This document shows positions 32,869 to 64,000 of a stretch of DNA of 64,000 nucleotides, one piece after another. The stretch comes from an uncultured Candidatus Saccharibacteria bacterium (GTDB taxonomy: Bacteria; Patescibacteriota; WWE3; 2-01-FULL-39-13): NCBI GenBank assembly GCA_965230915.1, contig OZ246395.1, positions 140,019-204,018 of the forward strand. Reading direction: 5' to 3'. The notes beneath the pieces were generated by a model. The model was not told the DNA's origin. It searched no databases and worked only from the letters and a program-made list of their open reading frames with translations. Each line of letters starts with the position of its first letter. Position 1 is the first letter of the stretch. A program made the position numbers and the translations under genes.

Positions 32869-33696
<828 letters not shown>

Positions 33697-36397: not shown

Positions 36398-38687
<2,290 letters not shown>

Positions 38688-38709: not shown

Positions 38710-38982
38710 TTAAAGGGATTCTAGGCCGACAAGTATTTCTACTTCGTTTTTTACGCATTTTAAAATACCTTTCCCGATTCTAAGTTGGACTTTTTCATTG
38801 TGGTTGGTTTGGATTAGGATATTTCTCTTAATAATTGATATAAAGCTTTGATGGCCTGGTAGGACATCGAAGCGACCCTCCTCATTTTCCGATGAAACGG
38901 ACTTCGCAGAGCCTGAGTAGATCGTTTTTTCTGATTCTATAACTTTTACCTCTAGTTTTTGTGTTTTATCTTTGGTTTCCAT
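38710..38982 (-). CDS. atpC: ATP synthase epsilon-like protein (N-terminal beta-sandwich only, 90 aa), encoded on the opposite strand, convergent with atpD
   Basis: LEVKVIESEKTIYSGSAKSVSSENEEGRFDVLPGHQSFISIIK matches the epsilon N-terminal-domain pattern (…IVTPE..I..G....V.......G..GIL.GH.P…). The C-terminal helical hairpin is absent. Confidence 0.5.
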   Translation of the reverse strand: METKDKTQKLEVKVIESEKTIYSGSAKSVSSENEEGRFDVLPGHQSFISIIKRNILIQTNHNEKVQLRIGKGILKCVKNEVEILVGLESL

Positions 38983-39143
38983 TACTACTATTCTAAGGCT
39001 ATATCTTATTGGTGTCTATTTGAGGTGCATGGAGGTTTATCTATTTAGCTTCTGTCATAGTTCTTGAGCTGAAATTGAGTAAAAAAATTTTGGTTATGGG
39101 GTACTTTTTTAGTGCAAAAAACTCGCGAGAAAAAATTACACTA

Positions 39144-39172
39144 TTGCTATGCTTTCAAAGCTTTTGTATAAT
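39144..39172 (+). promoter_or_regulatory. putative sigma70-type promoter for the giant gene: TTGCTA, 17-nt spacer, TG-TATAAT
   Basis: -35-like ttgcta (39144-39149), 17-nt spacer, then tgTATAAT (-10 at 39167-39172), ~38 nt upstream of the ATG at 39210. Confidence 0.4.
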
Positions 39173-39209
39173 TTTCTCATCACGAGATTTTTAAAATTAA
39201 TCCCTGCCC

Positions 39210-42200
39210 ATGGATACAACGAATCTTGACAATTTAAGAGATGTTAATCGGTTAGTACCAACTGACGAGATTATTAAACTTGCCAAAGATAGTGGAGTTA
39301 AATTCGGTTTCGGAGATGCAAGAAATCGTATCAGATACTTCGTTAAAAATGGGCTTCTTCCTCATCAAGTCCGTAAAGTTTTAGACGGAAAAATTACACC
39401 TCATCTTCCATACTCTGCACTTGAGAGGCTAATTGAAATCCAGGATCTTCAAACTACTTTTAAATATACAATCCCTCAACTTATAGAGCATTTTAATGAC
39501 TCTAACGTAAAGCAAGAGCGTTCAAAGTTTGAAGGATCAACTCCACAACCTATTGATGTTCCTGAAGAAGAGATTGTCGATGAAACAGTAAGTTCCACCT
39601 CTAATACCCCAGTTGCTCCTAATTCCGTGATAGATGCAACAAATGCTGCATCAGCCAATAGCATAGGTTCTGGGGATAATAATTCCTCTGTTATAGAAGA
39701 AGTTAAGCCACAAAAAAATGGTGGTTTTCAACCAATCGTCGGTAGCGAAGCTAGTAAGTTAGAAGTTGCGAATGGGAAGGTAAATGTAGGAGATTTGGCA
39801 AATGATGAGTTAGAAAATAAGACAGCAAAAGAGGTTGCGACAAAGCATGTCGGTAAGTACGCCTTAATTGCAGCTGGATTTTTACTTCTATTAATAGGTG
39901 TCATATCTCCATCGTTAGTAAGTGGTAAAGGTATTAATTTAGGTTGGCTGAAGAACGGGTTAAGTGATAGTTTTGGATTTTTACAAGATAAGGTAAATAA
40001 TGATGAAAATGCTCCTGCTGCTTCGGGCAACTTGGCGCAAAATGTCACAGATAGCACACAGGTAAGCTCAAATACTAATACAACAAATACTCAGGCATCG
40101 GTTTCAATATTTGGAATAAATATTCCAGCATATTTTTCAAATACGACTACATTCGGATCAGATGTCAATTTTGAGGGAAACCTTAATATAGAAAACCAGG
40201 ATATCAATTTGGGAACCGGGTCAATTCTTGCCTCAAATATTATCTACACAATTACGGGTGGAAATGGAATGCAGGTTTCGGCTGGCCAAAACCCTGTAAT
40301 TACAAATACTGGTGTATTAAGTATAGGTGGAGAATCAGGTGACATTGAATTAGCGGCTGGTGAAGGTATTGAAGTTGATGGAACCCAAATTACTAATATA
40401 GGAGTCCTTAGCCTTGGTGGAGAAACAGGTGAGCTTGAATTATCTGCTGGTGCAGATATAGATATAAATGGTTTACAAGTTGCACTTCAACCGGTACTAG
40501 ATACGGTTGAACAGATAAATTTGCCTGCAGATTCTGCAACAGCTTTGAAATTTGGCGGTATTGGAATTGGCCAAGCTGGTACATCGGTTTCTACATCGGG
40601 AGCTTCTTTAATCGGAATATATGACAATTTAGTCAACAGCTCAGCATCGAATCTACAATTGGCAGTTTCGGATATCGATACAGCGATAGGTGATCGCGAT
40701 TATTCGTTCCCACATTACATATCAGACGGACAAACTGTGACAGAAAGTTTAGAAACTTTAGATTCAACAATTTGGGGAATAGTCGGAGGTTCGATTGTCT
40801 GGTTTGATGGGGGCAATTACGTTTATACATCTGATTCTGAATACTTGGGAAATCCAACTAGTGGAGGAGCTAATAAAGTTACTGGGCTTTTCCTAGAAGA
40901 TAATGCCCCTATAACTTTTGGTACAAGCAATAATTTTACTGCTGTATTTGATGGAACACAGTTCGCTATGACGGATGGTTCTAACATTTTTATGAGTTTA
41001 GTTGATAGTGGTGCAAGCGCGAATTTTGCAATTAACAGGGATGACTTATTTGTTGCTCATGACGGTAAGGTAGGTATTGGAACAACTGCCCCGAGTTCTG
41101 CTTTACACGTAATCGGAAGTGCCAATATAACCGGTCAATTAACCTTAGGCAATGTTCCAACTGTAGGCGCTACTTCAACTGTGTTAACAAGCAGCTCTGG
41201 AGTTATTTCAGCTATGGATGTAAGCAGTTGGGATCTTGATTCATCCGATGATGTAACCACATTTTTAGGGTTAACAGATACGCCTGCTTCATATGCAGGG
41301 GCTGCTAATTATTTTGTAAGAGTAAATGGTGGCGGTACTGCATTGCAATTTACTGATTTAAGTGCATGGGATCAGGATTCTTCAGATGATTTAACCGGTT
41401 CAGGTGTAGATAGGTTCATTCCACTTTGGAATTCTGCTTCAGACTTGGTAACGTCTATTTTATATCAGGAAAGTGTGACAAATAATGTCGGTATCGGTAC
41501 TACAGATCCTGAATATGCTCTAGATATCGTAGGCGATATCAATACTTCTACAGATTTATTCGTTAATAATATTGCATTAAGTTCAACCGGGGGAGCAGGT
41601 TTAATTGGGGTTGATAGTACCAACATTGCAAATTCTTCAGCCACTATATTGCAAGATGTTTTAGAGGACCTAGACGCTTCTATCCAAAGCGGCTCACATG
41701 ATCCATTAACTTTAGCTGGCTCTTATGATTACTTAACATTAGATGGTCCGAATCAAGTTCTTACTCTAAATCAGATTGATTTAACAACAGGTACCGGAGA
41801 TGTAACTGGTTTATTAGGCGTGACAAATGGTGGTTTAGGCGCAAATGTATCAGCAGCTGGGGCTGGAGAATTGTTATTCTCGACTTCAACAACTGCTTAC
41901 GATTCTTTAAGTGCCGGATCTTCGAATCAGATTTTATTATCGAATGGAGCAGCTTCTCCTAGCTGGGTTAACTTAAGTACTTTGATTTCAGGGGGGGATG
42001 ATATTAGTGTGACCGGAACTACGTCCTTAACAGTTGCTTTGGAGGATAATATAGATCTTATTTCAGTAAATGCTGCCAGTGATGCGGGTATTAGCTTTTA
42101 TGATAATGGTAGCAACTTAGGTATGTTTATCGAGGATGGTGGTCAGATTGGTGTTGGTAGAACAAATCCTGAATACACATTAGATGTATCTGATACAGGA

Positions 42201-45200
42201 AGATTTGGAGGTCAATTGACATTAGCTTCTGTTCCATCTAGTGCAAGCAATAGCGTTTTAGTATATGGAGCGGGCGGAATTGTTTCACAAAGAGATGCTA
42301 GCGGTTGGGATACAGATGCGTCAAATGATGTCACCACTTTCTTGGGATTAACCGATACACCAAGTACATACGCAGGAAGCGCTAACTATATAGTCCGAGT
42401 TAATGGAGCAACAAACGCACTAGAGTTCTTAGATGCAGCAGGTTGGGATCAAAATGCTGCAGATGACTTAACCATTTCAGGAACAGCAAATCGTTCAGCT
42501 AAATTTAATGCATTAGGAAATAATGTAATGGAAGGATCTATAGATGATCTATATAACGCAGTTGCAGTAACAATTGATGCAAGCGGTAAGGTCGGTATCG
42601 GAACAACTGGCCCACAATTTGCATTAGATGTTGTCGGAAGAATTAGAGCTACAACCGATTTAATGGTTGGATCAGTAAATTTGGCTGACAACTCTTCAGC
42701 TGCAAGCGGAGCATCATTAATAGGAGTATTTGATAATAGCTTAACTTATGTTTCTGGTAATACTAATGTTCAAAGTGCTATTGAGCAATTAGATGCAGCA
42801 ATTGCAACAGCATCAGTCGGTGATATTTCTGCGATCGGTGATGTAACAAGTGGCGATGCGTTTACATCGGGCGGAACACAGGGAACAAGTTTATGGTTCT
42901 ATGATGCAGATGGAAGAGGTCAATTAACAATTGCTAACTTAACAGGACCACAGACATACACATTGCCGGACGCTAGCGGTGAGATTTCATTATTGGGTCA
43001 AACAATTGCAAACAACGAATTAGTAAATTCAGATATCACATTCAATGGTGATTCGGGTTCCGCCGCTATCTCCTTGGGCGGGGATTTTGACGTGATCGGC
43101 GGACCCGGAATCAGCACTTCAATATCAGCTACAACACTAACAATTACTAATACTGATTTAGGATCTACACAAAACATCTTCAAGAATATAGCTGTATCTG
43201 GCCAAAACACAGTTGTTGCAGATGCTAACAACGACACAATGACCCTAGTTGCAGGTACAAACGTAACTATTACAACAGACGATACAACTGATTCCGTAAC
43301 AATAAATGCAACAGATACTAATACAACATATACAGCAGGCAACGGTTTAACTTTAGCCGGAACAACATTCAAGTTCGGTGGAACAATTAGCGAAGATACA
43401 AGACTATTTAGTGCTACATCTGGAGAGATTCTATTTGTAAACGATACAACCGGAAATATTGGTTTGGGTATGACAGCTCCAGGCTACAAGTTAGATATAA
43501 ATGGAACAGCTAGAGTAGGCGGTCAATTAACATTAAGCAATGTTCCTTCCACATCTAATAATAATTTAGTGTTAACAGTAAACGGTGGAGTTGTTAGCTC
43601 TATAGATACAAGCGCGTGGGATACAAATGCGTCAAATGATGTCACTACTTTCTTGGGATTAACAGATGCTCCTGACTCATACACAGGCAGCGAGACTTAT
43701 TTAGTAAGAGTAAAGGCAGATGGAACAGGCTTAGAATTTGTAGATCCTGCGACAGTAGGCGGAGTTAACTCAGTCACAAATAGTGATGGAACATTAACAA
43801 TCTCTCCAACAACCGGAGCTGTTGTTGCTTCATTAAATTTAAATCAAGCAAACGCTTGGCTAGCTGCTCAAACATTTAGTGCCAATACATATTTTGGTGG
43901 AAATGGAATTTGGAGTTCTACAGGTGATGTCGGTATCGGTACAACTGCACCAGCATATAAACTTGATGTTGTTGGTGGAATTAGAACAACAACAGACTTG
44001 TTTGTAGGCAATATTGGATTAGGAACAACACAGCCTACAGGCTCAGGAGCTTCACTAGTTGGCGTTTATAATGGAAACTTAACAAACTCTATTGCTACAA
44101 ATGTTCAGTCTGTATTAGAGGATTTAGATGCTGCAATAGCAGGTTCTTCACACGATGCAGTTACATTAGCAGGTGCATACGATTACTTAACATTAAGTGG
44201 CCAACAGATTACATTGCAACAGATTGATTTAACTGAGGATGTAATAGGAGTATTGCCAACCTCAAATGGCGGTACCGGGCTAAATATTGATCCTACTGCA
44301 ATTGCTGACGGCCAGATTTTAATTGGAAACAATGCTGGTGACACATTTAGCTTAGCTACTATAACTCAAGGAACAGGTATTTCTATAACAAACGGTTCAG
44401 GAACAATTACTATTGCCAACTCTGACTTGGGTTCTAGCCAAAATATCTTTAAGAATATAGCTGTAAATGATCAAGGAACTGTGTCAACTGATACAAACAA
44501 TGACACTTTGACATTAGTCGCAGGAACAAACGTAAGTATTACAACCGATACCGGATCAGATTCAATAACAATTAACGCTACCGACACAGATACAACATAC
44601 ACAGCAGGCAATGGTTTAACTTTAGCAGGAACAACCTTCAAATTCGGTGGAACAATAACAGAGCCTACAAGATTAGCTGATGGCTCATTCGAATATCTAT
44701 TCTTAAATAATGCAAATGGAAGAGTAGGTATTGGAACAACTAACTCAGGTAGCAAGCTATCGGTAAGCGGTAACCAATCTATCGGTTCTACATATGCATT
44801 ATTGGCGGCTCCAACTAATGGATTAATCGTAGAAGGAAATACAGGAATCGGAGTAACGGCAACTATCTACCAATTAGAAGTTGGCGGAACAGCGGCTGTA
44901 CAAAACCTAGTATTAGGTGGAACACAAATAACAACAACTGGAACCGAAATTAATTTACTAAGCGGATTAACATCGACTTCAACAGAACTGAACTACCTAG
45001 ACGGAACAACAGTTCCAGCTGGTGCAGTGATGTTCGGAGACGGAACAAAGATTACAAATGATATTTCTAATTTCTTCTTTAATGATTCAACAAACAGATT
45101 AGGTTTGGGAACATCATCTCCAGATGCGACAATCGATGTCGCCGGTACAGCATGGTTACGAGGTAATTTATCCGCAGAAGGTTTATATGTTAACTCATCA

Positions 45201-48200
45201 GGTAATGTCGGAATCGGCGGAACAGCTGCTACTAGTGCTCCATTCTTCTTTAATACTTCGAGCGGATTTGCTACTAACTTAAGTTCAGCAACAGCATTAA
45301 CAGTTGGAGCAAACGGAACAGCATATGCAACATTTGATACTACACTTGGTTCTTCTAGTGACTTATTAAGCCTAAATGCTCCTGCTGGAAGCACATTAGG
45401 AAACTTATTTGCGATTTATGATAATGGTTCTCCGGTATTTAAGGTTTCACAGAACCAAATCGAGTCGGCTGTTCCACATACATTTACAGCAGCAGGTGAT
45501 GTTTCGATGTCTTATGATTTGAATTTCACCAACCCAACGGCTGCATATATAAACTTTGATGGTCCTGGTTATATCAGAACGAATAATCCAAGCGGCAACT
45601 ATGATTTAACATTAAGCGCAGCTAATAGCGGAGTGGTTTATATCGATGACAACTTAACAATTAGCGGAACTCAATTAACATTAACAAATGCTGCTGCATT
45701 AGACTTAGCGGCGTCGACAACAGCTCTAAATATCGAAAATGGTTTATTGAACTTAGATTCTACAAATGCAAGAGTTGGAATCGGAACAACAGTTCCAGGA
45801 TCTACATTATCTGTTGCAGGTAATCAAGCTATCGGTGCAACTTATGCAAGATTAGCAGCCCCAACAAACGGATTAATAGTGGAAGGTAACGTCGGAATTG
45901 GATTTACTGCAACAAACTACAAGTTGGCAGTAGCTGGAACAGCAGCAGTTTCTAATTTTGTACTTGGCGGAACACAAATCACAGCAACTGGCGCAGAAAT
46001 TAACTTACTAAGCGGATTAACTTCTACATCAAGCGAGCTTAACTACTTAGATGGAACAACCGTTGTAGCAGGTGGAGTAATGTTTGGAGATGGAACAAAG
46101 ATTGCCCAGGATACATCTAATTTCTTCTTTGATAGCGCAAGTAAGAGATTAGCAATCGGAACATCAGCAGCAAATAGCGGTTTAACAGTAATGGGATCAG
46201 GATCATTCGGCGCTGGTTATTCAAATATCGGAATTTCAGCTCCATTAAATGGCTTACTAGTGCAAGGAAATGTCGGAATCGGAATGACAAATCCTGGAGC
46301 ATTCGCTCTTAATGTAAACGGAAACATCAAGACTTCTGGCGACCTATTCATCGGAAACATCGGACTTGGAACAACAAATAGCGCAACTTCATCAGGAGCA
46401 TATTTAGTAGGAGTATTTGACGAATTTGATAACTCTAACTCTACAAATGTTCAGGCTGTATTAAACGATTTAGACGCAGCAATTGCTTCATCTGCGGGAG
46501 GATCAATTACTGGAATCGGCGACGTATCCTCAGGAGATGCATTTACAGCAGGTGGAACAAGCGGAACATCGCTATGGTTCTATGATCCACAAGGCCGTGG
46601 CCAATTAACAATCGCCAACTTAACAGGTGCACAAACATATACACTTCCAGATGCTAGTGGAGAGATCTCATTATTAGGTCAGACAATCGGTAATGCAGAA
46701 TTAGATAATTCAACAATTACATTTAATGCAGATACAGGTACTGTTGCATCAGCATTGGGTGATAGCTTCGCAATAAATGGAGGACCAGGTATAAGTACAG
46801 AAATCTCTGGAACAACATTAACAATCACAAATACAGACCTAGGCTCAAGCCAAAATATCTTTAAGAACATTTCGGTAAGCGGTCAAGGAACTGTATCTAC
46901 CGATACAAATAACGACACTTTGACATTAGTTGCAGGCACAAATGTAACTATAACTACTGATACAGGTTCGGATTCGATAACAATTAATGCAACAGACACA
47001 AATACAACATATACGGCTGGTAATGGTTTAACCTTAGCTACCACCACATTTAAGCTAGGTGGAACCATTACCGAAGACACAAGGCTTGCAAACGGTTCGT
47101 TTGACTACATCTTCTTAAATAACTCGGACGGAAACGTCGGTATTGGAACAACTGGTCCATTGTTTAAATTAGATGTAAACGGAACCGCAAGATTTACAGG
47201 AAACGTAACATTGGGTTCTGTTCCTGCTGATTCAAGTAACAACGTATTGGTATTAGATGGAAGCGGAGTTGTTTCTCAAAGAGATATAAGTGCATTCGAC
47301 CAAAATGCGTCAGATGATGTCACTACATTCCTAGGATTAACGGATACTCCAAGCTCATATACCGGAAATGAAACATACTTAGTAAGAGTGAATGCAGCAG
47401 GTAATGCTTTAGAATTTATCGACCCAACTACAGTAGGTGGAGTTAACTCAGTTGCAAATAGTGATGGAACATTAACAATCTCTCCAACAACAGGAAATGT
47501 AGTGGCTTCAATTAATTTAAACAACGCAAATGTATGGACAGGAAGCCAAACATTTAGCGCAAATACATACTTCCCAGGTAGCGGAGTTTGGGACACATCT
47601 GGCGATGTTGGAATTGGAACGACAGATCCACAATATAAATTGGATGTGGCTGGCTCTATAAATGTACTGGGCTTCTATCTATCAGGTGTTGCGCTTACTT
47701 CTTCTGCAGATGAATTAAACATTTTAGATGGAGCAACTCTTTCGACTTCTGAACTGAATATCTTAGACGGCGTTACTTCTACGGCAGCTGAAATTAATTA
47801 CCTAGATAACTCGACTGTATTAGCAGGAGGAATGGTGTTCGGAAATGGAACTAACTTTACACAAGATGTTTCAAACGTTTTCTACAATTCAACAACAAAG
47901 AGACTTGGAATCGGAACATCAACACCTGGAAACACTTTAGGTGTTGCCGGCGCAGCCGCAATCGGATCAGGTTACGCAGGAACTGGAATTTCTGCTCCGG
48001 CAAACGGCTTACTGGTACAAGGTAATGTCGGAATTGGAACAACTAATCCTGCATTCAAACTTGATGTAAATGGAGATATAAGAGTTGTCTCTGGTTCAGA
48101 TTTATATATCGGTGCAATCGGAATGAACGATAATGCATCGTTATCATCGGGAGCTTCATTGATCGGCTTATATGACGATTCAATGACATATATAAGTGGA

Positions 48201-51200
48201 AATACAACAGTTCAGGATGCAATAAAACAATTAGATACCGCAATCGCATCGGCAGCAACCGGAGACATAACTGCAATCGGTGACGTAGCAAGTGGCGCAG
48301 CATTCACATCAGGTGGAACACAGGGTACAAGTTTATGGTTCTACGATCCACAAGGTCGCGGTCAATTAACGATCGCAAACTTAACAGGTGACCAGACATA
48401 CACATTGCCAGACGCATCAGGAGAAATTTCATTACTTGGTCAGACGATAGGTAATTCAGAGCTTGAAAATTCAACAATCACATTCGCAGGTGATACAGGC
48501 TCTAATGCATCAGCCCTTGGAACAACATTCAATATCGTAGGCGGAACCGGAATCGGAACATCAGTAGGAGGAAACAACGTGTCGATCATAAACACCGATC
48601 GTGGTTCATCACAGAGTATATTCAAGAACTTCGCAGTAAGCGGTCAAAACACAGTAGTTGCAGATGCAAACAACGACACCTTAACACTAGCCGCCGGATC
48701 AAACATAACTATCACAACAAATGACACAACAGACACAATTACAATTGCTGCAACCGATACAAATACAACATACACAGCAGGCAACGGTTTAACATTGGCT
48801 ACAACTCAATTCAAGTTAGGTGGTCAAATAACAGAGCCAACAAGATTATTCGACGGGTCAAACGAATACTTATACATCAACCCTAATACAGGAAATCTTG
48901 GTATTGGTACAACAAATTCAGGCTACAAACTAGAAGTTAACGGAACATTCAATGCTGCAAGCGGATTCTACTTAGCAGGCTCACAAGTAACATCAAATGC
49001 ATCCGAATTAAATATATTAGACGGAGCAACACTAAATACAACAGAGCTTAACTACCTAGACGGCACAACTGTTGTAGCGGGAGGAATAACATTCGGAAAC
49101 GGTTCATATATCGCTCAAGATCCAGCTGATTTCTTCTGGAACAACACCTCAAACAGATTAGGTTTAGGAACATCTGCTCCAACAACTACATTAGATGTTG
49201 CAGGAACCTTTAGAGTAACAGGGAACACAACATTAGGCGATGCATCAGGTGATACGGTAACTTCAAACGCTGCTTCTTGGATATTCGCAAATGCAACAAC
49301 AATCGATTTAGCAAATTCAACAGCTGCATTAAGTATTGAAGGCGGATTATTAGGATTTGACTCGTCAAATGGAAGAATCGGAATCGGAACTACAGCTCCA
49401 AGTAAAACACTAGATGTGATTGGTGGAATAAGAACAACAGATGATTTATACGTAGGATTAATCGGTCTAAATGATAACGGATCAACATCATCAGGATCTT
49501 CATTAATCGGCTTATACGACAATAGCTTAGTTTACATTTCCGGAAATACTACAGTTCAAAGTGCGATCGAGCAGTTAGATGCAGCAATTGCAACAACCGC
49601 AGGTAATCAACACGATCCTGTAACCCTTGCAGGTTCACTAGCCTACTTAACATTAAATGACCAAGAAATAACTTTGAATGCGATTGACTTAACAACCGAT
49701 GTATCTGGAGTTCTTCCATTGGAAAATGGGGGAACAGGCAAGAATATCGACGGAACTGCAATTACAAATGGCCAGATTTTAATTGGGAATGCTACTACCG
49801 ACGGATTCGACCTTGCAACAATAACTCAAGGAACCGGTATTTCTGTAACAAATGGAGCAGGTTCAATCACAATTACAAATACCGATTTAGGATCAAGCCA
49901 GAATATCTTTAAGAATATAGCTGTAAATGATCAAGGAACTGTGTCAACTGATACAAACAATGACACATTAACATTAGTCGCTGGAACAAACGTAACGATC
50001 ACAACCGATGACACAACAGACTCAATAACAATTAACGCTACAGATACAAACACAACATACACAGCAGGCAATGGATTAACTTTAGCGGGAACAGTATTCA
50101 AGTTTGGTGGAACAATAACAGAACCAACAAGATTAGCTGACGGTTCATTTGAATACCTATTCTTAAATAATGCAAATGGAAGAGTAGGTATAGGAACAAC
50201 TAACTCAGGTAGCAAGCTTGGTATAGCCGGAAACGTAGGTATCGGAAACTCATATGCAACATATGCCGCTCCAGCTAATGGATTGATAGTAGAAGGTAAC
50301 ATTGGAGTTGGATTTACAGCTACAAATTATAAACTCGGTGTAAACGGAACAGCAGCTGTTTCAAACCTAGTACTTGGCGGAACACAGATTACAGCTACAG
50401 GTACAGAGATTAACAAATTAAGTGGATTAACTTCATCAACTGCAGAATTAAATATATTAACAGGCGTCACAACAAACGCTACAGAACTTAATTATCTAAC
50501 CGGATCATCAGTAGTATCTGGCGGAATAGTTTTTGGGGATGGAAGCAAATTCACACAAGATGCTGCTAACTTATTCTTCAATAACACATCAAAGAATTTA
50601 TCAATTGGTTCAACCGCAGGTGGTAGCAGACTTTCAGTAAATGGTGGAGCAGCAATCGGTTCTGGCTATATCGGAACAGCACTTTCAGCTCCAACAAACG
50701 GACTTCTTGTTCAAGGAAATGTTGGAATTGGAACAACAAACCCAGGAACTTATGCATTGAACGTAAATGGAACTGCAAATGCAAATGCATTATCAATTGG
50801 TAACTTACTATTATCAGCAAATTCAACTGCTACATCAGGCGGAACTTTAGTCGGAATTAATGACAACTCATTAACATATGTTTCTGCTAATACAAATGTC
50901 CAATCAGCAATCGAACAATTAGACGCAGCAATGTCATCAAACTTTAGCGGAGTAATAACAGCAATTGGTGATGTAACAGCAGGGGACGCATTCACATCAG
51001 GTGGGACACAAGGTACAAGCCTATGGTTCTACGATGCACAGGGCCGTGGCCAATTAACAATTGCTGATTTAACAAGTGCAAGAACATACACATTGCCAGA
51101 TGCCAGTGGGGAAATTTCATTACTAGGACAAACAATTTCTAATGCTGAGCTAGATAATTCAACAATCACATTCGCAGGGGACACAGGTTCAAATGCTTCA

Positions 51201-54200
51201 GCATTAGGAACAACATTCAACATCGTAGGTGGAACCGGCATCGGAACATCAGTTGGAGGAAACAACGTGTCGATCATAAACACTGATCGTGGCTCTTCAC
51301 AAAATATCTTCAAGAACTTTGCAGTAAGCGGTCAAAACACAGTATCAACCGATACAAACAACGACACATTAACATTAGTCGCTGGAACAAATGTAACAAT
51401 CACAACCGATGACACAACAGACTCAGTAACAATTAACGCTACAGATACAAATACAACATATACAGCAGGCAACGGTTTAACTTTAGCCGGAACAACCTTC
51501 AAGTTTGGTGGAACAATAACAGAGCCTACAAGATTAGCCGATGGTTCTTTTGAATACTTATTCTTAAATAACGGAAATGGAAGAGTGGGTATTGGCGCTA
51601 CAAACTCAGGAAGCAAATTATCAGTAGCTGGAAACGTAGGTATCGGAAACTCATATGCAACATATGCAGCTCCAGCAAACGGATTAATCGTAGAAGGCAA
51701 CACCGGTTTAGGAGTAACAGCTACAAACTTCAAGCTAGAGGTTGGAGGAACAGCAGCTGTTAAGAACTTAGTATTGGGTGGAACTCAAATAACAGCAACA
51801 GGAACTGAATTAAACAAACTAACAGGAGCAACACTATCAACAACAGAATTAAATTATCTAACAGGCACCACTGTTACATCAGGTGGAGTTCTATTCGGGG
51901 ACGGAACAAAGATTACTAACGATTCAGCTAACTTCTTCTGGAACGATTCAACAAATAGATTGGGTTTAGGGACAACAGCTCCTGGTCAGCAATTAGAATT
52001 AACTGGAAATATATTGTTACAAGGTAGCGGAAAGATTTACTTTGACGGTCCTGCATCAACCAACTATTCGATCTCGAGAAGTGCAAATAGATTCAGATTA
52101 GATTCTGCAGATTCATTTACTATTGGTTTAGACTCAACTGGATTAACGGGTGATGCTTTCTTAAATATAACTGACAGAAATGTTTCAAGAGTTTACATGG
52201 ATGCAAATGGTTTATTTGGAATCGGAACATCCGCTCCAGAAAGCTTGTTAACAGTTAAAGGAAATGCATCTATTGGTTCGGGTTATACAGGAATCGGAAT
52301 TTCATCCCCGTTAAATGGATTATTAGTTCAAGGTAACGTCGGAATCGGAAACACAAACCCAGGTGCATATGCATTAAATGTAACCGGAAACCAAAATATC
52401 AGCGGAACACTAACACTTGGGACAGTTAACTCAACATCAAACAACAATCAGGTACTAACAGTAAATAATGGGGTTGTTAGCTACATCGATACAAGCGGAT
52501 GGGATACAAACGCTTCAAATGATATTTCAACATTCTTAGGATTAACAGATACTCCAAGCTCATACAGCGGGGTTGGTAGCCAATTTGTAAGGGTGAACGC
52601 AGGTGAATCAGCTTTAGAATTCGTCGACTTATCAGCATGGGATCAAAATGCTGCAGATGATTTAACAATCTCTGGAACCGATAATAGAATCGCAAGGTTC
52701 AATGCGGCAGGTAATAACGTAGAAAATTCATCAATCGATGACGCATACACAGGTGGAGTTGCTCTAAGAATATTTGCAAATGGAACAATCGGAATCGGAG
52801 TAACTGCAACCAATTATCAATTAGCCGTCGGTGGAACTGCTTCGGTTTCAAACCTTGTATTAGGCGGAACTCAATTAACTGTAACTGGAACAGAATTAAA
52901 TCTATTAAGCGGATTAACCGCAACTTCATCCGAACTAAACATCTTAGACGGAGCAACATTATCAACGGCTGAATTAAATATTCTTGATGGCGCGACAGTT
53001 ACAGCTGCAGAACTTAATTACTTAGATAATTCATCAGTATTAGCAGGCGGATTAGTATTTGGAAACAACAGCAACTTTACACAAGATGTAGCAAATATTT
53101 TCTGGAACGATTCAACAAAGAGGTTAGGAATTGGAACATCGGCTCCAGGCCAAACATTATCAGTTGCTGGAACATTCGGTATAAAAGAAGGCGGATCATC
53201 TCCACATTTCTTTACAGCATTCCAGGGCGGAGACCAAAGCGCAGATATAACTTACACATTGCCAGTTGATGACGGATCAAGCGACTACGTTTTAGTAACC
53301 GATGGAAATGGAGTTCTTAGCTGGCAATCAGTCGGCGGAGTAGGTGCAGGAACCGGAGATATAACAGCAGTAATTGCTGGCGGAGGTTTATCTGGTGGAG
53401 CTTCAACAGGTGACGCAACACTCGATATCGGAGCTGGAAACGGTATCACTGTAAATGCAGATGATATTGCTATAAAGCTTGCAATATCATCAGGTGTTGG
53501 TGCAACAGCTTCATACTCCGGATTAGAAGTAAATTCAAACGGATTAAGTATGTTAACAGGTTGCGGTCAGGGCGAAATTTTAACTTGGGATGATTCCAAT
53601 AACATCTGGAAATGCGCTTCTATCGCATCATCAGGCGGAATAACTGGAACAGGTACAGCTAACTATGTTCCTTTATGGAATACATCATCAGATTTAACAA
53701 ATTCAGTAATCTATCAAACAGGTTCTAGTTTAGGAATTGGAACAACTGTCCCTGGAAGCAATCTATCAGTAAGCGGAAATCAGGCTATTGGTGCTTTATA
53801 TTCACGATATGCAGCTCCAGCGAATGGATTAATCGTAGAAGGTAACGTTGGAATCGGTTATACAGCTACAAATTACAAACTTGCAGTAGCTGGAACGGCA
53901 GCATTCAGCAACTTAGTACTTGGTGGAACACAAATTACAGCAACTGGAACAGAAATCAATAAATTAGCTGGCTTAACATCATCGACATCTGAACTAAACA
54001 TTTTAACTGGAGTAACTGCAAATGCTACAGAAATAAATTACCTAGATAATTCAAGCGTATTGGCAGGCGGATTAGTATTTGGAAACGGATCGAACTTTAC
54101 ACAAGATGTCGGAAGTATTTTCTTTGATTCAACAAATAAGAGATTGGGAGTCGGAACTTCAGCCCCAACAAGTGCTTTATCAGTAAATGGTGGAGCTGCA

Positions 54201-57200
54201 ATTGGTTCTGGTTATGCAGGTGGTGGAGTTTCTGCTCCAACAAATGGCTTATTGGTACAGGGTAGAGTTGGAATTGGAACAACCAATCCATCCTCAACAT
54301 ATGCTTTAGATGTAAATGGATCAATAAGAGCAACTTCATTAAATACAGCAAGCTCAACATATCAAAATGCTTTAATTTCAAATTCAGGTGCGTTCAACGT
54401 TAGTGTAGGAGGCGGAAGCAACTTATACATGACACTAAATGGAACTTCAGCTTCAGATAACTATATCGTTAGAACTGGTACAACAGATTTATTTAGAGTA
54501 GGTGGAAATGGCAAAGTCGGAATCGGAACAACAGCTCCAGAATCATTATTATCAGTAAAAGGTAATCAAACAATTGGCGCCGGTTACACAGGAATCGGAA
54601 TCTCAGCCCCAGTAAATGGTCTATTAGTCCAAGGTGTAGTCGGAATCGGCATGACCAACCCAGGTGCATTCGGATTAAACGTTGGAACAGGAATCAATAC
54701 ATTAGACGATCTATACGTAAATTCAGTCGGCCTAAATGATAACGCTTCAACAACCTCTGGAGCTTCATTAATCGGATTAAATGACGATTCAATGACATAC
54801 ATTTCCGGAAACACAACAGTACAAAGCGCAATCAAACAATTAGATACAGCAATTTCTTCAGGTCTAGGCGGAACAATAACAGCAATCGGAGATGTAACAT
54901 CTGGTGATGCATTTACATCAGCTGGAACACAAGGAACATCACTTTTCTTCTACGATCCACAAGGTCATGGCCAATTAACAATTGCAAACTTAACAGGTGA
55001 TCAAACTTATACACTTCCAGATGCAAGTGGAGAAATTTCTCTTCTTGGCCAAACAATCAGCAATTCAGAGTTAGTAAATTCAGATATCACATTCAATGGT
55101 GATTCGGGTTCCGCCGCTATTTCCCTGGGCGGGGATATTGACGTGATCGGCGGACCCGGAATCAGCACTTCAATATCAGGTACAACACTAACAATTACTA
55201 ATACCGATTTAGGCTCTACACAAAACATCTTCAAGAATATAGCTGTATCTGGCCAAAATACAGTTGTTGCAGATGCTAACAACGACACAATGACCCTAGT
55301 TGCAGGTACAAACGTAACTATTACAACAGACGATACAACTGATTCCATAACAATCGCAGCTACCGACACAAACACAACATACACAGCAGGAAACGGTTTA
55401 ACTCTTGCATCTACAACATTTAAACTTGGTGGAACAATCAGCGAAGATACTAGACTCGCAAATGGTTCTTTTGAATACTTATTCTTGAACAATGCAAACG
55501 GAAGAGTCGGAGTTGGAACAACAAATTCAGGATCAAAATTATCTGTAAATGGTAATCAAGCAATCGGAGCAACTTATGCTTCTTATGCAGCTCCAGCAAA
55601 TGGATTAATCGTAGAAGGAAACACTGGTCTTGGTGTAACTGCAACAATCTATAAACTCGAAGTTGGCGGAACAGCAGCTGTTAAGAATTTGGTATTAAAT
55701 GGAACACAAATAACAGCAACCGGAACCGAAATCAACAAATTATCTGGCTTAACATCTTCAACAGCAGAACTAAATATTTTAACCGGAGTAACAACCAATG
55801 GTACTGAGCTCAATTATTTAGATAATTCAACAGTATTAGCAGGTGGATTAGTATTTGGAAACGGTTCTAATTTCACTCAAGATATTTCAAACATCTTCTT
55901 TAATAGCACTTCAAAGAATCTTGGTATCGGAACATCAGCTCCAGGAAGCAGATTGTCAGTAGCAGGTGGAGCAGCAATCGGATCAGGATATGTAGGGTCA
56001 GGCTTATCAGCTCCAACAAACGGACTTCTTGTTCAAGGAAATGTCGGAATTGGAACAACAAACCCAGGAACATATGCGCTAAATGTTGCAGGCGGAGTAA
56101 ATGTTTCAACCTTATCGATTGGCAACTTACTATTATCAGCAAATTCAACCGCAACATCAGGAGCAACATTAGTTGGATTAAATGACGATTCACTAACTTA
56201 TGTAAGTGGAAACACAAGTGTTCAAGATGCTATTAAACAACTTGACACGGCAATTGCAACAGCAGCAACAGGTGATATTTCAGCAATCGGTGACGTAGCA
56301 AGTGGCGCAGCATTTACATCAGGTGGGACACAAGGTACAAGTTTATGGTTCTATGACCCACAAGGTCGTGGTCAATTAACGATCGCAAACTTAACAGGTG
56401 ACCAGACATACACATTACCAGATGCATCAGGAGAAATTTCATTACTAGGACAAACAATTTCTAATGCTGAGCTAGATAATTCAACAATCACATTCGCAGG
56501 TGATACAGGGTCAAATGCTTCAGCATTAGGAACAACATTCAACATCGTAGGTGGAACCGGAATCGGAACATCAGTAGGTGGAAACATCGTGTCGATCATA
56601 AACACCGATCGTGGTTCATCACAGAGTATATTTAAGAATATTGCCGTAAGCGGTCAGAATACCGTAGTTTCAGATGCAAACAACGATACATTAACACTTG
56701 CAGCAGGTTCTAACGTAACAATCACAACAAACGACACTACAGACACAATTACAATTGCTGCAACCGATACAAACACAACATATACAGCAGGCAACGGTTT
56801 AACTCTCGCTTCAACAACATTCAAACTCGGCGGATCTATTACAGAACCAACAAGATTATCAGACGGATCATTCGAATACTTGTTCTTAAATAATGGAAAC
56901 GGAAGAGTAGGTATAGGAACAACAAACTCAGGTTCTAAACTCGGCATAGCTGGAAACGTAGGTATCGGAAACTCATATGCAACATATGCAGCTCCATCTA
57001 ACGGTTTGATAGTTGAAGGGAATGTAGGCTTAGGTGTAACGGCAACAAACTTCAGATTAAGCGTAAATGGAACAGCTGCGGTTACAAACTTAGTACTAGG
57101 TGGAACTCAAATTACAGCAACTGGCACTGAAATCAATTTATTGTCAGGTTTAACATCAACTTCAACCGAGCTTAACTACTTAGATGGTACAACAATAACT

Positions 57201-60200
57201 TCAGGCGGAGTTTTATTTGGCGATGGAAGCAAGATCACAAATGATGTTTCAAACTTCTTCTTTAACTCAACAACAAAGAGATTAGCAATTGGAACATCAG
57301 CAGCAAATAGCGGTTTAACAGTAAATGGTAGCGGATCATTCGGCGCTGGTTATTCAAATATCGGAATTTCAGCTCCACTAAATGGATTATTAGTACAAGG
57401 CAATGTCGGAATTGGAACAACAAACCCAGGAACATATGCATTAAATGTTGCCGGTACAGCAAATGTAAACGCTTTATCTATCGGAAACTTATTACTAAGC
57501 GCAAATTCATCCGCTACATCGGGTGCAACTTTAGTCGGACTAAATGACAACTCATTAACATACGTATCTGGAAATACAAACGTTCAATCGGCTATCGAAC
57601 AACTTGATGCAGCAATCGCAACAGCAGCAACTGGCGACATTTCAGCAATTGGCGACGTAACAAGCGGCGCAGCATTTACATCGGGCGGAACACAGGGAAC
57701 AAGTTTATGGTTCTATGATGCAGATGGAAGAGGTCAATTAACAATCGATAACTTATCAGCTGCAAGAACCTACACATTACCAAATGCATCAGGTGAAATT
57801 TCATTACTGGGCCAAACAATCAGTAACGCAGAGTTAGTTAATTCAGATATTACATTCAATGGTGATTCGGGTTCCGCCGCTATTTCCCTGGGCGGGGATT
57901 TTGACGTGATCGGCGGACCCGGAATCAGCACTTCAATATCAGGTACAACACTAACAATTACTAATACCGATTTAGGCTCTACACAAAACATCTTCAAGAA
58001 TATAGCTGTATCTGGTCAAAATACAGTTGTTGCAGATGCTAACAACGATACAATAACCCTAGTTGCAGGATCAAATGTAACAATCACAACAAATGACACC
58101 ACAGACACAATTACAATTGCTGCTACAGATACAAATACAACTTACACAGCAGGCAACGGTTTAACATTGGCGACAACTCAATTCAAGTTAGGCGGTCAAA
58201 TAACAGAGCCAACAAGATTATTCGATGGATCTAATGAGTATTTATATATAAATCCAAACACAGGTAATTTAGGTATTGGAACAACAAATTCAGCATACAA
58301 ACTAGAAGTAAATGGAAGCTTCAACGCAGCTGGTAATTTCTATTTAGCAGGTTCTCAGGTAACTTCATCAGCTGCTGAATTAAATATCTTAGATGGTGTA
58401 ACATCAAATGCTACAGAACTTAACTACCTGGATAACTCAACAGTTGTGTCAGGCGGAATGGTATTTGGTAATGGAAGCAACTTCACACAAGATGCAGCAA
58501 ATATTTTCTACAACTCAACAACAAAGAGACTTGCAATCGGAACATCGGCAGCAAATAGTGGCTTAACCGTAAATGGTAGTGGTTCATTTGGAGCAGGTTA
58601 CTCAAATATCGGAATTTCAGCACCATTAAATGGATTACTGGTGCAAGGAAACGTCGGTATTGGAACAACCAACCCTTCGGCGACATTAGATGTAGCAGGT
58701 AATATCAAACTTGGAACAGCTGGTAATAGCGCCACAATCACTTTCCCAGTAACGACTTCTGGTTCAAGCTTCGTACCTTTGATTCAGAGTATCTACGGAT
58801 CTAACGCGCTTCGTATGAGCATGGATAGCAGTAACTATATTCAAATCCTTGGTAGTGGTGGTGGTGCAAATATTCAGAGTGGTGGAAGTAATTTTACACT
58901 TAATGGTACTGCAGCAACATTCAGCTTAAACGGTTTTGGGGAAGTCTTTAGAGCCACCAGTTCAGGAACTGTTGGTATTGGAACATCAGTACCTGGAAGT
59001 AAATTATCAGTTAGTGGCAATCAAGCAATCGGAGCTTTGTATTCAAGATATGCAGCTCCAACCGATGGATTAATCGTTCAAGGAAATGTCGGAATTGGTT
59101 ACACCGCAACAAACTATGCGTTAGGCGTAAATGGAACCGGTAACTTCTCAGATTTAGCAATTGGAGGAACATTATTCTCGGCAAATTCATCGGCAACATC
59201 TGGAGCTTCATTGGTCGGATTAAATGACGACGCAATGACATACATAAGTTCTAATACAAACGTTCAAAGCGCAATCAAACAATTAGATACAGCAATTGCA
59301 TCGGTTTCAGGTTCAGCAATAACAATCTCAGGAACCGACAACAGATTAGCAAGATTTAATGCAGCCGGTAATAACGTCGAAGATTCATCACTCAATGATT
59401 TATATACAGGCGGAGTTGCATTAACAATTGGAGCAAATGGAAATGTTGGAATCGGTTACACAGCAACCAACTATAGATTGGCAGTAGCTGGAACAGCAGC
59501 GTTACAAAACTTAGTACTTGGAGGAACACAAATCACTGCTACTGGAACAGAAATAAACAAACTATCTGGATTAACCTCATCAACAGCTGAATTAAATATT
59601 TTAACTGGTGTAACAACAAATGCTACAGAACTAAACTATCTAGACAATTCAACAGTCGTATCCGGCGGATTAGTCTTCGGAAACGGATCAAACTTTACAC
59701 AAGATACATCAGACTTATTCTGGAACAGCTCTCTAAACAGATTAGGAGTTGGAACATCAGGCCCAGAAAGCACATTAACCGTAAAAGGTGGGGCAACAAT
59801 AGGCGCAGGTTATACAGGAATTGGAATTTCGGCTCCAACAAATGGATTATTAGTACAAGGAAACGTTGGAATCGGAACAACCGCTCCAATTCAAGCTTTG
59901 GACGTGTCAGGAAGTATCAGGGCTACTGGTTCGGGTAACTTTTCTGGAACTGTAATTGCTAAAGCAGGGAGTGCATCAGATCCTGCATATCAATTCCAAG
60001 GCTTAGGTAATGTAGGCATGTATATGGTTGCCACTGGATTAGGGTTCTCATCTGCTGGTCTGGAAAGAATGCGTATAGACGTAAATGGCAACGTTGGAAT
60101 CGGAACAACTGCTCCTTCATACAAACTCGACGTAAACGGTGATGCAAGAGTAGCTTCAGGATCAGACTTCTATGTCGGTTCAATCGGCCTAAACGACACA

Positions 60201-63200
60201 GCAGGAACATCAACATCAGGTGCATCACTAGTCGGTGCATTCGACGAATTCGCATACTCATCATCAAGCAATGTTCAAGACGTGTTAGACGATTTGGATG
60301 CAGCAATCGCAACAGTATCAGGCTCAGCTTTAACAATCTCCGGAACCGACAATAGAATCGCTAGATTCAATGCTGCAGGCAACAATGTTGAAGATTCATC
60401 TCTAAACGATAACTACACAGGTGGAGTTGCATTAACAATCGACACAGAAGGCGACATCGGAATCGGAGTAACAGCTTCAATCTACAAATTAAATGTAAAC
60501 GGAAGTTTGAACACAACAGCTTTATCCCTAGGCGGGTCACAGGTAAACTCATCAGCCGCAGAAATAAATGTATTACAAGGTGTTAACACGGGAACACTAA
60601 CAGGTTCAGAACTTAACTTGGTAGATGGAGCAACCGCTACAAATGGCGGACTAGTCTTCGGAAATGGAACAAGATTTGCACAGGATGCTGCAAGTTTATT
60701 CTGGGATGATTCGAATAATAGATTAGGTATTGGGATAACCGCACCTGCTCAGGCTCTAGATGTAATGGGTTCGATCAGATCAAACGGAAGCTATTTAATC
60801 AATGGAAACTCTAATTTCATACTAAATGGAACTACTTTGAATTTGGGATCTAATGACGCTGTTATACAAGCAAAATGGGGTAGCGCAAACTTAAATATTA
60901 GGTCTGGCGATATTGGTGGATACGGAACGATCTCATTCCAGAGAACAAATGGCACTCCTATTACAACAATGTTTATAGATGCTTTAGGCAACATCGGAGT
61001 TGGTACCACAGCTCCAGAAAGCAGATTCACACTAGCAGGCAACGCATCAATCGGCTCTGGTTACACAGCAATCGGAATCTCAGCTCCAACAAATGGACTT
61101 CTAGTTCAAGGTAACGTAGGGCTAGGCTTAACAAACCCAGGCTCATTCAACTTAAACGTAAACGGAACAACAAGACTTGGTGGAGCATTAACTTTAGGAA
61201 CAGTTAACTCAACAGCAAACAATAACCAGGTATTAACAGTAAATTCTGGAGTAGTAAGTTACATCGACACAAGCACATGGGATACCGATTCATCAAACGA
61301 TTTAACAATCTCAGGTACTGATAACAGAATCGCAAGATTTAATGCAGCAGGAACAAACGTCGAAAACTCTTCAATAAATGATAACTATACTGGTGGAGTC
61401 GCATTAACAATCGATGCAGAAGGCGATGTCGGAATCGGCGTAACAGCTTCAATCTATAAATTAGCAGTCGGTGGAACCGCATCTGTATCTAGCTTGGTAC
61501 TAGGTGGAACTCAAATAACTGCAACCGGAACCGAAATTAACAAATTAAGCGGATTAACTTCATCAACATCAGAACTCAACTTACTAACAGGCGTCAACTT
61601 AACATTATCTGCTTCAGAAATAAATACATTAGACGGAATAACATCATCAACAGCTGAACTAAATTATGTAGACAACGCAACTGTAACTTCTGGTGGAATG
61701 GTATTTGGAAACGGTTCCAACTTCACTCAGGATGCTGCAAATATTTTCTATAACAGCACAACAAAGAGACTTTCAATCGGAACATCAGCAGCAAATAGCG
61801 GTTTAACAGTAAACGGATCAGGATCATTCGGCGCTGGTTATTCAAATATCGGAATTTCAGCTCCATTAAATGGCTTACTAGTGCAAGGAAACGTTGGAAT
61901 CGGAAACACAAACCCAGGCGGTTATGCACTGGCAGTCGGCGGAACAGCAAATGTTTCTAACTTATCTATCGGCGGATTATTATTAAATACAAATTCATCT
62001 GCCACATCTGGCGGAACATTAGTCGGAATCAACGATAATAGCTTGACCTATATCTCAGGTAACACTAATGCTCAGTCAGCAATCGAACAATTAGATGCAG
62101 CAATAGTAAGCGTTGCAAGCGGAGCATCAGGACTTTGGACCGATGCTGGTACAACAACTTACTTAACAACATTAACCGACAACGTCGGAATTGGAGTAAC
62201 AGCTACAAACTACAAGTTAGCAGTAAGTGGAACAGCAGCTGTAAGCAACCTGGTACTTGGTGGAACTCAAATCACTGCAACTGGAACTGAAATCAATTTA
62301 TTAAGCGGATTAACAGCTACATCGTCAGAATTAAATATCTTAGATGGTGCAACACTAAATACAACCGAGCTTAACTACCTAGATAACTCAACAGTAGTAT
62401 CAGGCGGAATGGTGTTCGGAAACGGTACAAACTTTACACAAGACACTGCAAATATCTTCTGGAATTCAACAACAAAGAGATTCGGTATCGGGACAAGTGC
62501 TCCAAGAAGCGCATTAACAGTATCGGGTAATGGTTCGTTCGGAGCAGGTTACGCAGCAATTGGAATCTCAGCTCCACTAAATGGCTTACTAGTCGAAGGC
62601 AATACTGGCATCGGAGTAACGGCAACTATCTATAAATTAGAAGTGGGTGGAACAGCCGCTGTTAAGAACTTAGTACTTGGTGGAACTCAAATCACATCAA
62701 GCGCTACAGAATTAAACAAACTAACAGGTGCAACATTATCTACAGCCGAACTTAACTACTTAACCGGAACAACAGTTACAAATGGTGGAGTTCTTTATGG
62801 CGACGGATCAAAGATCACAAACGATGTTTCTAACTTCTTCTTTAACAGCACATCAAAGAGATTGTCTATTGGTACTTCCGCAGCTAATAGCGGCTTAACA
62901 GTAAATGGTTCGGGATCATTTGGTGCAGGTTATTCAAATGCTGGAATTTCAGCTCCATTAAATGGATTAATCGTACAGGGTAATACAGGTATCGGATCAT
63001 CTGCTCCATCAGCATTATTATCGGTAGGCGCTTCAAATCAATTCTTGGTTAACTCATCAGGAAACATTGATAGAATCGGCGGAGTTAATCATACAATCAG
63101 CAACAATGGTGGAAACTTATTATTAACCGGAAATGGTGAACTTCAATTTGACGATTCGACATTGGCATCAGCAGTTCAATTAACTGATTTAGATAACTCA

Positions 63201-63998: not shown

Positions 63999-64000
63999 CA

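Follow-up and report, generated by a model that had tools for sequence, protein, structure and literature searches.

A giant, putatively membrane-anchored protein with tail-fibre-like modules encoded beside the ATP synthase operon of an uncultured Patescibacteria bacterium

The giant gene and its layout

We have analyzed a stretch of 64,000 nucleotides (the window) from an uncultured bacterium deposited as Candidatus Saccharibacteria (GenBank assembly GCA_965230915.1, contig OZ246395.1, positions 140,019 to 204,018 of the forward strand). Its last 24.8 kb are occupied by one open reading frame (ORF) that begins just downstream of an ATP synthase operon and runs off the edge, and whose product is most likely a very long surface fibre contacting other cells. 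The ORF is open at its 3′ end, with the C-terminus lying beyond the window, so that the length of 8,263 amino acids (aa) is a lower bound. At least 2.6% of the source contig (945,287 bp, for a genome of about 0.95 Mb) is devoted to this one ORF. The gene is laid out as follows.

39210 to 63998, + strand: giant ORF, recognized by its stop-free frame, third-position bias and a dN/dS of about 0.17 between internal copies
39210 to 39509, + strand: N-terminal domain of about 100 aa, predicted to be cytoplasmic and helical, motif GVKFG[FY]G..NRIRYF[VI]K.GLLP
39510 to 39857, + strand: charged low-complexity linker (aa 101-216), assigned from charge content
39858 to 39923, + strand: single transmembrane (TM) helix (aa 217-238, YALIAAGFLLLLIGVISPSLVS), a predicted signal-anchor with the N-terminus inside
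40107 to 40499, + strand: membrane-proximal stem module (aa about 300-430), NIPAYF..ASNIIYTITGGNGMQVSAGQNPVITNTGVLSIGG.. / ASNIIY..GQNPVITNTGVLSIGG
40500 to 63998, + strand: mosaic fibre region (aa 431-8263), with 62 VGIGTTxP-type cap motifs between shuffled modules

Computational translation of frame 1 on the + strand from ATG 39210 to 63998 gives 8,263 codons with no stop, and the nearest in-frame stop 5′ of the ATG is the TAA at 39198. An initial annotation made from the letters alone had claimed this start and this open run, and had named such a translation as one way to check it; both are confirmed. It had stated that the run could not have arisen by chance; across this span each of the five remaining frames contains 208-937 stops. 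It had also supposed that the program-made ORF list was silent here for want of a terminal stop. That list does omit ORFs running off the edge, and holds no + strand ORF after atpD.

The third codon position of the giant ORF is strongly biased (G 6.7%, A 43%). Codon use follows the native pattern of the adjoining genes, with a more extreme preference for codons ending in A. One antisense frame across the gene is unusually poor in stops (208 in 8,263 codons). We note inside the giant gene a 161-aa antisense ORF (55007-55492, - strand), which is probably a by-product of the codon bias of the giant gene and not itself a gene.

The repeated nature of the protein raises the possibility that its length was inflated in assembly, or that the gene is dead. 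Seven internal copies of a unit of 288-290 aa have dS values of 0.65-2.2 with a median dN/dS of 0.17. At the DNA level the internal copies are 60-89% identical, and the longest exact repeat is shorter than 120 nt. Judged by these comparisons the repeats are old duplications under purifying selection, and neither a recent assembly expansion nor a decaying pseudogene. With copies this diverged and no exact repeat of 120 nt or more, collapse or expansion of the repeats is unlikely. It is true that short-read contigs break at the locus, and that a related gene in a long-read contig (L083; contigs and loci carry L numbers here, and related proteins P numbers) is split by frameshifts. However, the synonymous saturation and strong purifying selection of the diverged copies oppose an artefact, and a stop-free frame of 24.8 kb at 38-40% GC cannot survive without selection. 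We regard an artefact or a dead gene as scarcely credible.

The short-read contigs come from two independent assemblies of the same organism in Logan, L001 (SRR14271365) and L002 (SRR14271372), and they end within or right after atpD. Short-read assemblies thus break at the giant gene, and only the long NCBI contig spans the region.

The N-terminal domain, linker and membrane anchor

The initial annotation had placed about 225 residues ahead of one TM helix of positive-inside orientation. We find roughly 216 residues before the helix, and a single segment at aa 217-238. Its Kyte-Doolittle peak over 19 aa is 2.48, where the next best value in the 8,263 aa is 1.49. Four lysine or arginine residues lie in the 16 residues before the helix and two after it, so that the N-terminal side has more positive charge. 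Charged residues (K/R/E/D) account for 26% of the first 216 aa compared with 10% past the TM helix.

Residues 1-100 are 48-59% identical, in DNA-level searches, to the corresponding part of orthologues in three other Patescibacteria contigs (L003, L108 and L109). These share the N-terminal domain, TM helix and stem in the same layout, lie directly downstream of atpA-G-D(-C), and each runs off its contig or locus. Their linkers are analogous, being acidic or charged, although the sequences differ. A search of a 5.8-billion-protein database with residues 1-100 found no relatives. The stem is the part most widely common to the relatives of the giant protein, occurring in P0001-P0003 and in atp-neighbour genes of 13 loci (in L003 by inspection).

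In many relatives the place before the TM helix is taken by a canonical MerR/HTH_17 helix-turn-helix (HTH) domain, with E values from 1e-9 to 1e-26. The order MerR HTH, TM helix, stem and fibre is found in P0001, P0002, P0023, P0024, P0042, P0123, P0180 and P0194, and in ten atp-linked loci. We read the N-terminal domain of the giant protein, from its location, as the positional equivalent of this HTH. Pfam MerR_1 is the top match for two of the orthologues, L109 (E 0.0013, 19.3 bits) and L003 (E 0.0067, 17.0 bits), both below the 21.6-bit cut-off. The copy in the window has no MerR match (PF13411 or PF00376) at E <= 1, nor does that of L108, and comparison with MerR HTHs by hhalign (probability <1%) and by hidden Markov model (HMM) lent no support. 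A single-sequence AlphaFold2 (AF2) model of the domain is all helical, with a predicted local distance difference test score (pLDDT) of 44. The domain may be a divergent descendant of a MerR-like one, as an unproven suggestion.

A second protein in the window carries an HTH. This is a 404-aa protein (24655-25869, + strand) that begins with a domain of HTH_17/MerR type (E 2e-11), continues in a long low-complexity region rich in Q, N, G and S, and has no TM helix. A relationship between it and the N-terminal domain of the giant protein was considered and rejected, as the sequences do not match.

A DNA-binding domain on the cytoplasmic side would give the protein a different role, as a contact sensor or membrane-tethered regulator that could coexist with adhesion. 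The fibre would be an antenna, and the HTH-type domain would bind DNA; binding, tension or cleavage at the membrane might alter transcription or tether the nucleoid at the site of contact. The significant MerR domains of so many relatives point this way, as do the sub-threshold MerR_1 matches in two of the four orthologues and the conservation of the N-terminal domain in the same position across four lineages, where linker and fibre are not collinear. Yet the domain in the window has no significant HTH match and the profile-profile comparison was negative, no operator, protease or partner gene was identified, and a cytoplasmic domain could simply aid anchoring, oligomerization or export. On balance we take a sensor to be unlikely, though not extremely so.

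In its strongest form the proposal is a contact-to-DNA device made of one polypeptide, in which a fibre of several hundred nanometres would be continuous, through the TM helix, with a DNA-binding domain of MerR type or derived from it. Through tension, clustering or regulated cleavage, contact with a host would directly switch transcription, or would fix the chromosome where the cell is attached, and the arrangement would be conserved beside the ATP synthase operon across Microgenomates-like Patescibacteria. We find this distinctly unlikely. If true, it would define a class of membrane-tethered regulator not described before, and would account for the way in which episymbiotic candidate phyla radiation (CPR) bacteria sense attachment.

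The mosaic fibre region

Past the TM helix the protein is composed largely of G (14.2%), T (13.4%), S (10.3%), A (9.4%), N (9.3%) and L (9.1%), while K, R and E make up 1.4, 1.4 and 2.1% of the whole. The bias towards G, T, N, S and A and the scarcity of K, R and E had been noticed in the initial annotation, as had a single pair of cysteines at about 53560-53620; the only cysteines are at aa 4785 and 4802, encoded at nt 53562 and 53613.

For about 92% of the protein as a whole, and about 97% of the part past aa 431, one or more paralogous copies exist elsewhere in the chain. The thousands of residues of repeats that had been described are thus present. They are not simple tandem cassettes, however, and a simple tandem-repeat array is rejected since the modules are shuffled in a mosaic of about ten types. 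Each module is opened by a cap motif of the type VGIGTTxPxxxL (62 copies of VGIGxT type, of which 40 have the P). The modules were recognized by the following motifs.

Module B: QLDAAI, 14 copies
Module C: LWFYD, 7 copies
Module D: IFKN...TYTAGNGL, 9 copies
Module E: FLGLTD, 5-6 copies
Module F: HDxVTLAG, related to C, 3 copies
Module G: LVLGGTQ, then ELNxLxG repeats of 13 residues, 44 repeat motifs with 24 spacings of exactly 13 aa
Module H: NGLxVxG, 23 copies
Module I: RFNAAGN, 5 copies

The unit of 288-290 aa used above for the selection analysis is a cap followed by modules B, C and D. Between its seven copies, identity is 68-84% at the protein level and 60-89% at the DNA level. They are given here with two inserts.

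42591 to 43457, + strand: cap-B-C-D copy 1
46272 to 47135, + strand: cap-B-C-D copy 2
48027 to 48896, + strand: cap-B-C-D copy 3
50721 to 51584, + strand: cap-B-C-D copy 4
54639 to 55505, + strand: cap-B-C-D copy 5
56043 to 56906, + strand: cap-B-C-D copy 6, whose D module, used as query, led to the viral tail-fibre relatives
57405 to 58268, + strand: cap-B-C-D copy 7
45531 to 45695, + strand: segment aa 2108-2162 in a mostly single-copy insert, with a sub-threshold PF21930 match
53124 to 53729, + strand: single-copy insert aa 4639-4840, containing both cysteines and a TYTLPxxDG...LSW motif, with no Pfam match

The match of aa 2108-2162 to PF21930, a beta-helical trimerization domain, has an E value of 0.0053 and 17.1 bits against a cut-off of 27 bits. 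The TAAGDVS.AYDL.FTNQTA... motif of this segment recurs in P0023 and P0042, just before the C-terminal region.

Relationship to fibre proteins

The initial annotation had assigned the repeats no identity. The modules are homologous to those of viral tail fibres and of the mosaic adhesive trimer (MAT) and Peptidase_S74 (S74) fibres, as judged by several sequence matches. PHROG 9942, annotated 'tail fiber', matches the mosaic region with an E value of 2e-7. The D module is 57-73% identical to 23 viral loci in IMG/VR. In one of the viral contigs (L087) it lies within a 1,469-aa protein whose C-terminus matches PHROGs of T4-like long tail fibre and baseplate proteins (E 1e-34 to 1e-18). A tblastn search of 50,697 deposited phage genomes gave no match. 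Peptidase_S74 is present in the relatives P0003, P0043, P0075 (from the same genome), P0107 and P0180.

Among protein structures, phmmer found a single match by sequence in the PDB, between aa 604-675 and residues 9-81 of 8ojn_C (E 0.0023), with the cap GRVGVGTTAPTSALHVIG aligned with GKVGIGTTAPSSALHVIG. 8OJN is the tip of Bd3182, a crystallized MAT fibre of Bdellovibrio bacteriovorus (Caulton et al. 2024, Nat Microbiol, PMC10769870). The same paper describes the capping-loop consensus of these fibres, V-G-G/N-pi-x-x-P-x-x-x-L, their intertwined trimeric beta-helices, their S74 or non-S74 ends and their role in prey recognition. The cap VGIGTTxPxxxL is a variant of this consensus and not an exact match to it. 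A profile search of the PDB with an alignment of 75 module sequences gave no match.

The initial annotation had proposed HMM searches and structure prediction on individual cassettes. The former were run on the two halves of the protein and on the separate modules. Structure prediction of the repeats covered one supermodule of 483 aa, for which AF2 (monomer, 75 aligned sequences) gave a mean pLDDT of 56 and a predicted template modelling score of 0.32, with only the D module reaching pLDDT 74-90. So poor a monomer model would fit an obligate oligomer, and is equally explained by a shallow and uneven alignment; it is not evidence for an oligomer. In a Foldseek search of the PDB with this model nothing was found at E <= 0.001; the head of BadA came up at E 1.3, which is not significant.

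The very large, low-charge, G/T/S/N-rich ectodomain might also suit a structural component of the envelope, such as an S-layer-like coat, a spacer or a sheath, in place of a host-binding adhesin; many copies would make up a glycocalyx-like brush for cell spacing or protection. The gene's conserved chromosomal place beside a housekeeping operon would be in character, and codon bias stronger than that of the adjoining genes could reflect high expression. The modules, however, are those of receptor-binding fibres (MAT, phage tail fibres and S74 proteins), and collinearity is lost from one lineage to the next, a behaviour typical of recognition proteins that diversify and not of lattices. We therefore judge an envelope coat to be quite improbable.

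A family of HTH-TM-fibre proteins

An exhaustive comparison of aa 2340-3339 with 1.84 billion representatives returned 12,238 proteins at E <= 1e-3, of which 179 were at E <= 1e-30. Matches at the level of modules include candidate division WWE3. Among the best 150 listed, the longest relatives are P0023 (6,147 aa) and P0022 (5,875 aa), and the giant protein is longer than both. The initial annotation had ranked the gene among the largest bacterial ORFs. That holds within the family so listed, but giant genes elsewhere encode up to 85,804 aa (West-Roberts et al. 2023, bioRxiv 10.1101/2023.11.21.568195). By its sequence relationships and order of parts the protein clearly belongs to an undescribed Patescibacteria family of HTH-TM-fibre proteins that exists only in databases, and is the longest member found. 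We found no description of this family in the literature on CPR tail-fibre, S74 or giant adhesins. P0024, for example (MBN1162167.1, 2,849 aa), is named 'MerR family DNA-binding transcriptional regulator' at NCBI.

P0022 is the middle piece of the frameshift-split giant gene in L083, a long-read contig from ENA (positions 1-23599), where pieces of 634, 5,875 and 1,202 aa were called. Joined, they make a protein of at least 7.8 kaa that has lost its N-terminus at the contig end. P0022 was tried as a collinear orthologue of the giant protein and rejected; the modules are common to both but shuffled, which makes the mosaic nature of these proteins explicit.

The complete relatives indicate how such proteins end, with a chaperone domain (Peptidase_S74, or a type marked by ADLAEWY...GRVPVK) followed by a small beta-rich C-terminal domain. 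In P0023, which is complete, a MerR HTH, TM helix and fibre are followed by the TAAGDVS.AYDL segment, then by ADYAEMY...GRVPVKV, then by a coiled coil, and last by a small C-terminal domain whose final residues are FDWWIV. The L083 gene ends like P0023, in ...FDWWILETETEEE. P0075, a second family member of ordinary size (1,395 aa) encoded in the same genome outside the window, has a hydrophobic anchor at its N-terminus, modules of type E, Peptidase_S74 and, at its C-terminus, a VNWIVIN domain.

Ends of other kinds also occur, with PF03781 in P0077 (precomputed Pfam) and an H-type lectin in P0003. Since the C-terminus of the giant protein lies past the window, this variability leaves room for a delivery arm in the style of contact-dependent inhibition or polymorphic toxins, with a toxin or lytic enzyme as C-terminal effector, and P0023 is followed by a 1,493-aa protein with Laminin_G_3 matches. 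Against this, the complete or near-complete P0023 and L083 sequences carry at their ends a segment resembling a chaperone, then a coiled coil and a small domain of FDWWI type, with no recognizable toxin. An effector arm seems very improbable.

Some relatives (P0223 and P0237) are named trimeric autotransporter adhesins by JGI. This identity was rejected for the giant protein, which has no signal peptide; the complete P0023 has no YadA anchor, with only MerR and a faint PF22603 on record. No LP.TG, the C-terminal sorting signal of Gram-positive LPXTG surface proteins, occurs in the 8,263 aa within the window, which do not include the C-terminus.

A model for a probable surface fibre

We think it likely, with appreciable room for doubt, that this chromosomal gene is intact and translated and encodes a type II (N-in) single-pass membrane protein with a tail-fibre-like ectodomain of at least 8,000 residues, acting as a fibre for contact with a host or partner cell. 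The N-terminal domain of about 100 aa would stay in the cytoplasm while the TM helix served as signal-anchor and the remainder was exported through Sec. Outside the cell the ectodomain would fold into a long, beta-rich and probably trimeric shaft of shuffled modules, each opened by its cap, with the trimer anchored in the membrane by three N-terminal TM helices. In phage fibres a C-terminal intramolecular chaperone nucleates trimer folding from the C-terminus. By analogy with these and with the complete relatives, a chaperone encoded beyond the window would be expected to nucleate folding here.

Scaled from the Bd3182 fibre, which at full length is roughly 55 nm long (its construct being numbered to residue 922), the fibre might measure several hundred nanometres, comparable to or longer than a CPR cell. 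It would thus reach the surface of the host or partner cell and bind to it, and module shuffling would diversify the fibre between lineages.

Several points weigh against this reading. Searches with the halves and with ten separate modules found no Pfam or NCBIfam family at threshold in the 8,263 aa, and the link to the PDB is one short motif at E 0.0023. There is neither a PF13884 match nor an SDxxxK motif within the window, the C-terminus being beyond its edge. AF2 prediction gave no usable structural model. No independent assembly spans the giant gene, the two short-read contigs ending at or just after atpD, so the repeat copy number is that of the NCBI contig. Finally, we infer trimerization, surface exposure, expression and binding, together with the extended length and the nature of the C-terminus.

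Comparison with known systems

The MAT fibres (Bd3182; PDB 8OJN, 8ONB and 8ONC) offer the nearest likeness. Phage-like modules are used in cell-surface fibres that are not part of a virion, as would be the case here on the strength of sequence, and the capping-loop motif VG.G..P...L is common to both. One end is conserved for retention while the rest is mosaic, some members having a C-terminal S74 chaperone and others not, and each comes from an organism that lives on other bacteria. MATs are of about 1,000 aa (the Bd3182 construct ends at 922 and full-length Bd2133 has 1,031 residues), and have a cleavable signal peptide and a conserved beta-rich N-terminal domain of about 130 aa (PMC10769870). 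By contrast the protein described here has at least 8,263 aa, a cytoplasmic part of 216 aa, a TM anchor and a different stem module, and belongs to a monoderm-like CPR lineage. A MAT-type N-terminal signal peptide is absent, the sole hydrophobic segment beginning at aa 217, behind the charged part.

The S74 fibres and tailspikes of phages (PF13884; K1F endosialidase and the L-shaped fibre of T5) and the long tail fibres of T4-like phages share with it the D module, PHROG 9942 and, in its relatives, S74. They differ in that the gene here lies in a chromosomal, housekeeping context, and the protein is anchored to the membrane by its N-terminus, is 5-10 times longer and has no S74 within the window. 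Closest in build are the MerR-HTH-TM-fibre proteins of Patescibacteria, such as P0024 and P0023, which have the same order of parts, the same modules and the adjacency to the atp operon. The giant protein and its three orthologues are set apart from these by the divergent domain of about 100 aa in place of the canonical MerR HTH.

Giant bacterial genes as such are already known, up to ten times larger than this one. Those of Omnitrophota are likewise very large and mostly extracellular, come from ultra-small cell-dependent bacteria, are implicated in attachment and fragment assemblies. Such giants exceed 30,000 aa and have many TM regions and domains of the SecA-DEAD or dockerin type (bioRxiv 10.1101/2023.11.21.568195). 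The present protein has a single TM helix, no SecA-DEAD or dockerin domain and tail-fibre-like modules, and no Pfam match at E <= 0.01 beyond noise; an Omnitrophota-type identity was therefore rejected.

A large part of bacterial diversity belongs to the Patescibacteria, which seem to live in attachment to other cells; among their attachment structures, type IV pili have so far received most study. The giant gene is a concrete candidate for host recognition in CPR bacteria, and would extend the MAT concept of Bdellovibrio to a different phylum and a different mode of anchoring. A genome of about 0.95 Mb keeps this gene of at least 24.8 kb under purifying selection, and the family, with more than 12,000 representatives, is labelled 'hypothetical' or, misleadingly, 'MerR transcriptional regulator' in databases. 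Two features are unexplained, namely that an HTH domain is fused to a giant putative surface fibre and that linkage to ATP synthase is conserved. In practical terms, short-read assemblies fall apart at a gene of this kind, and ORF callers overlook it where a contig ends.

Genomic setting

The genes upstream are housekeeping in character, comprising a ClpB-like fragment, RadA-like, Rho, a LysM-M23 peptidase, Obg, LeuRS, two GT5 starch/glycogen synthases, GH57 and the atp operon, and there is one tRNA-Arg upstream of the giant gene within the window. The features nearest to the giant gene are these.

32872 to 38687, + strand: F-type ATP synthase operon from Pfam matches, with atpA at 34858-36354, atpG, and atpD (start given as 37242 or 37296) to 38687
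39144 to 39172, + strand: possible sigma-70-like promoter TTGCTA-17-TATAAT, 38 nt 5′ of the ATG (weak evidence)

The housekeeping neighbours, the lack of phage genes and the synteny with atp conserved across lineages led us to reject a prophage tail fibre.

The closest atpD sequences among 185,579 species representatives (GTDB) are from Patescibacteria (Levy-, Roizman- and Woesebacteria, and unclassified members). None is more than 57% identical, so that the source is a small-genome CPR bacterium with no close sequenced relative in the collections searched. Of the 27 closest atpD loci (L003-L029), 18 have a gene of the fibre family adjoining the atp operon, as do L084, L108 and L109. It stands just downstream, as in the window, or divergently upstream (P0023 in L084), and ten of the 18 genes start with a canonical MerR HTH. 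This linkage holds across several Patescibacteria lineages. It has no obvious functional reason, and could be no more than gene order that has been kept.

Between atpD and the giant gene lies a 90-aa atpC-like ORF (ATP synthase epsilon; 38710-38982, - strand), on the opposite strand to the operon. The inversion is also seen in L003 and L108, and not in L109 or L084. It leaves a divergent intergenic region of 227 bp (38983-39209) with one promoter-like site on each strand. Note that promoter-like sites are not enriched upstream of the giant gene (three found, against 2.3 +/- 1.7 expected from shuffled sequence).

Further upstream is a glycogen/starch cluster (26297-32829), with two GT5 starch-synthase-like genes on opposite strands, GH57 and a protein of 584 aa bearing APH and protein-kinase domains. 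L084 likewise has a GT5 gene near its fibre gene. In that locus the 1,493-aa protein directly downstream of P0023 (27843-32324) has matches to DUF2341, repeated Laminin_G_3 and Toxin_R_bind_N, and may be a partner surface protein.

Eight contigs (L007, L009, L012-L014, L017, L024 and L038) were deposited as metagenome-assembled genomes of 'uncultured Gammaproteobacteria', 'Methylococcaceae', 'Pseudomonadales' or 'Lysobacterales'. Their atpD sequences are 47-56% identical to that of the window and are placed among the Patescibacteria matches, and L007, L009, L013 and L017 also hold fibre-family genes. They look like CPR contigs that were mis-binned with the genomes of possible hosts.

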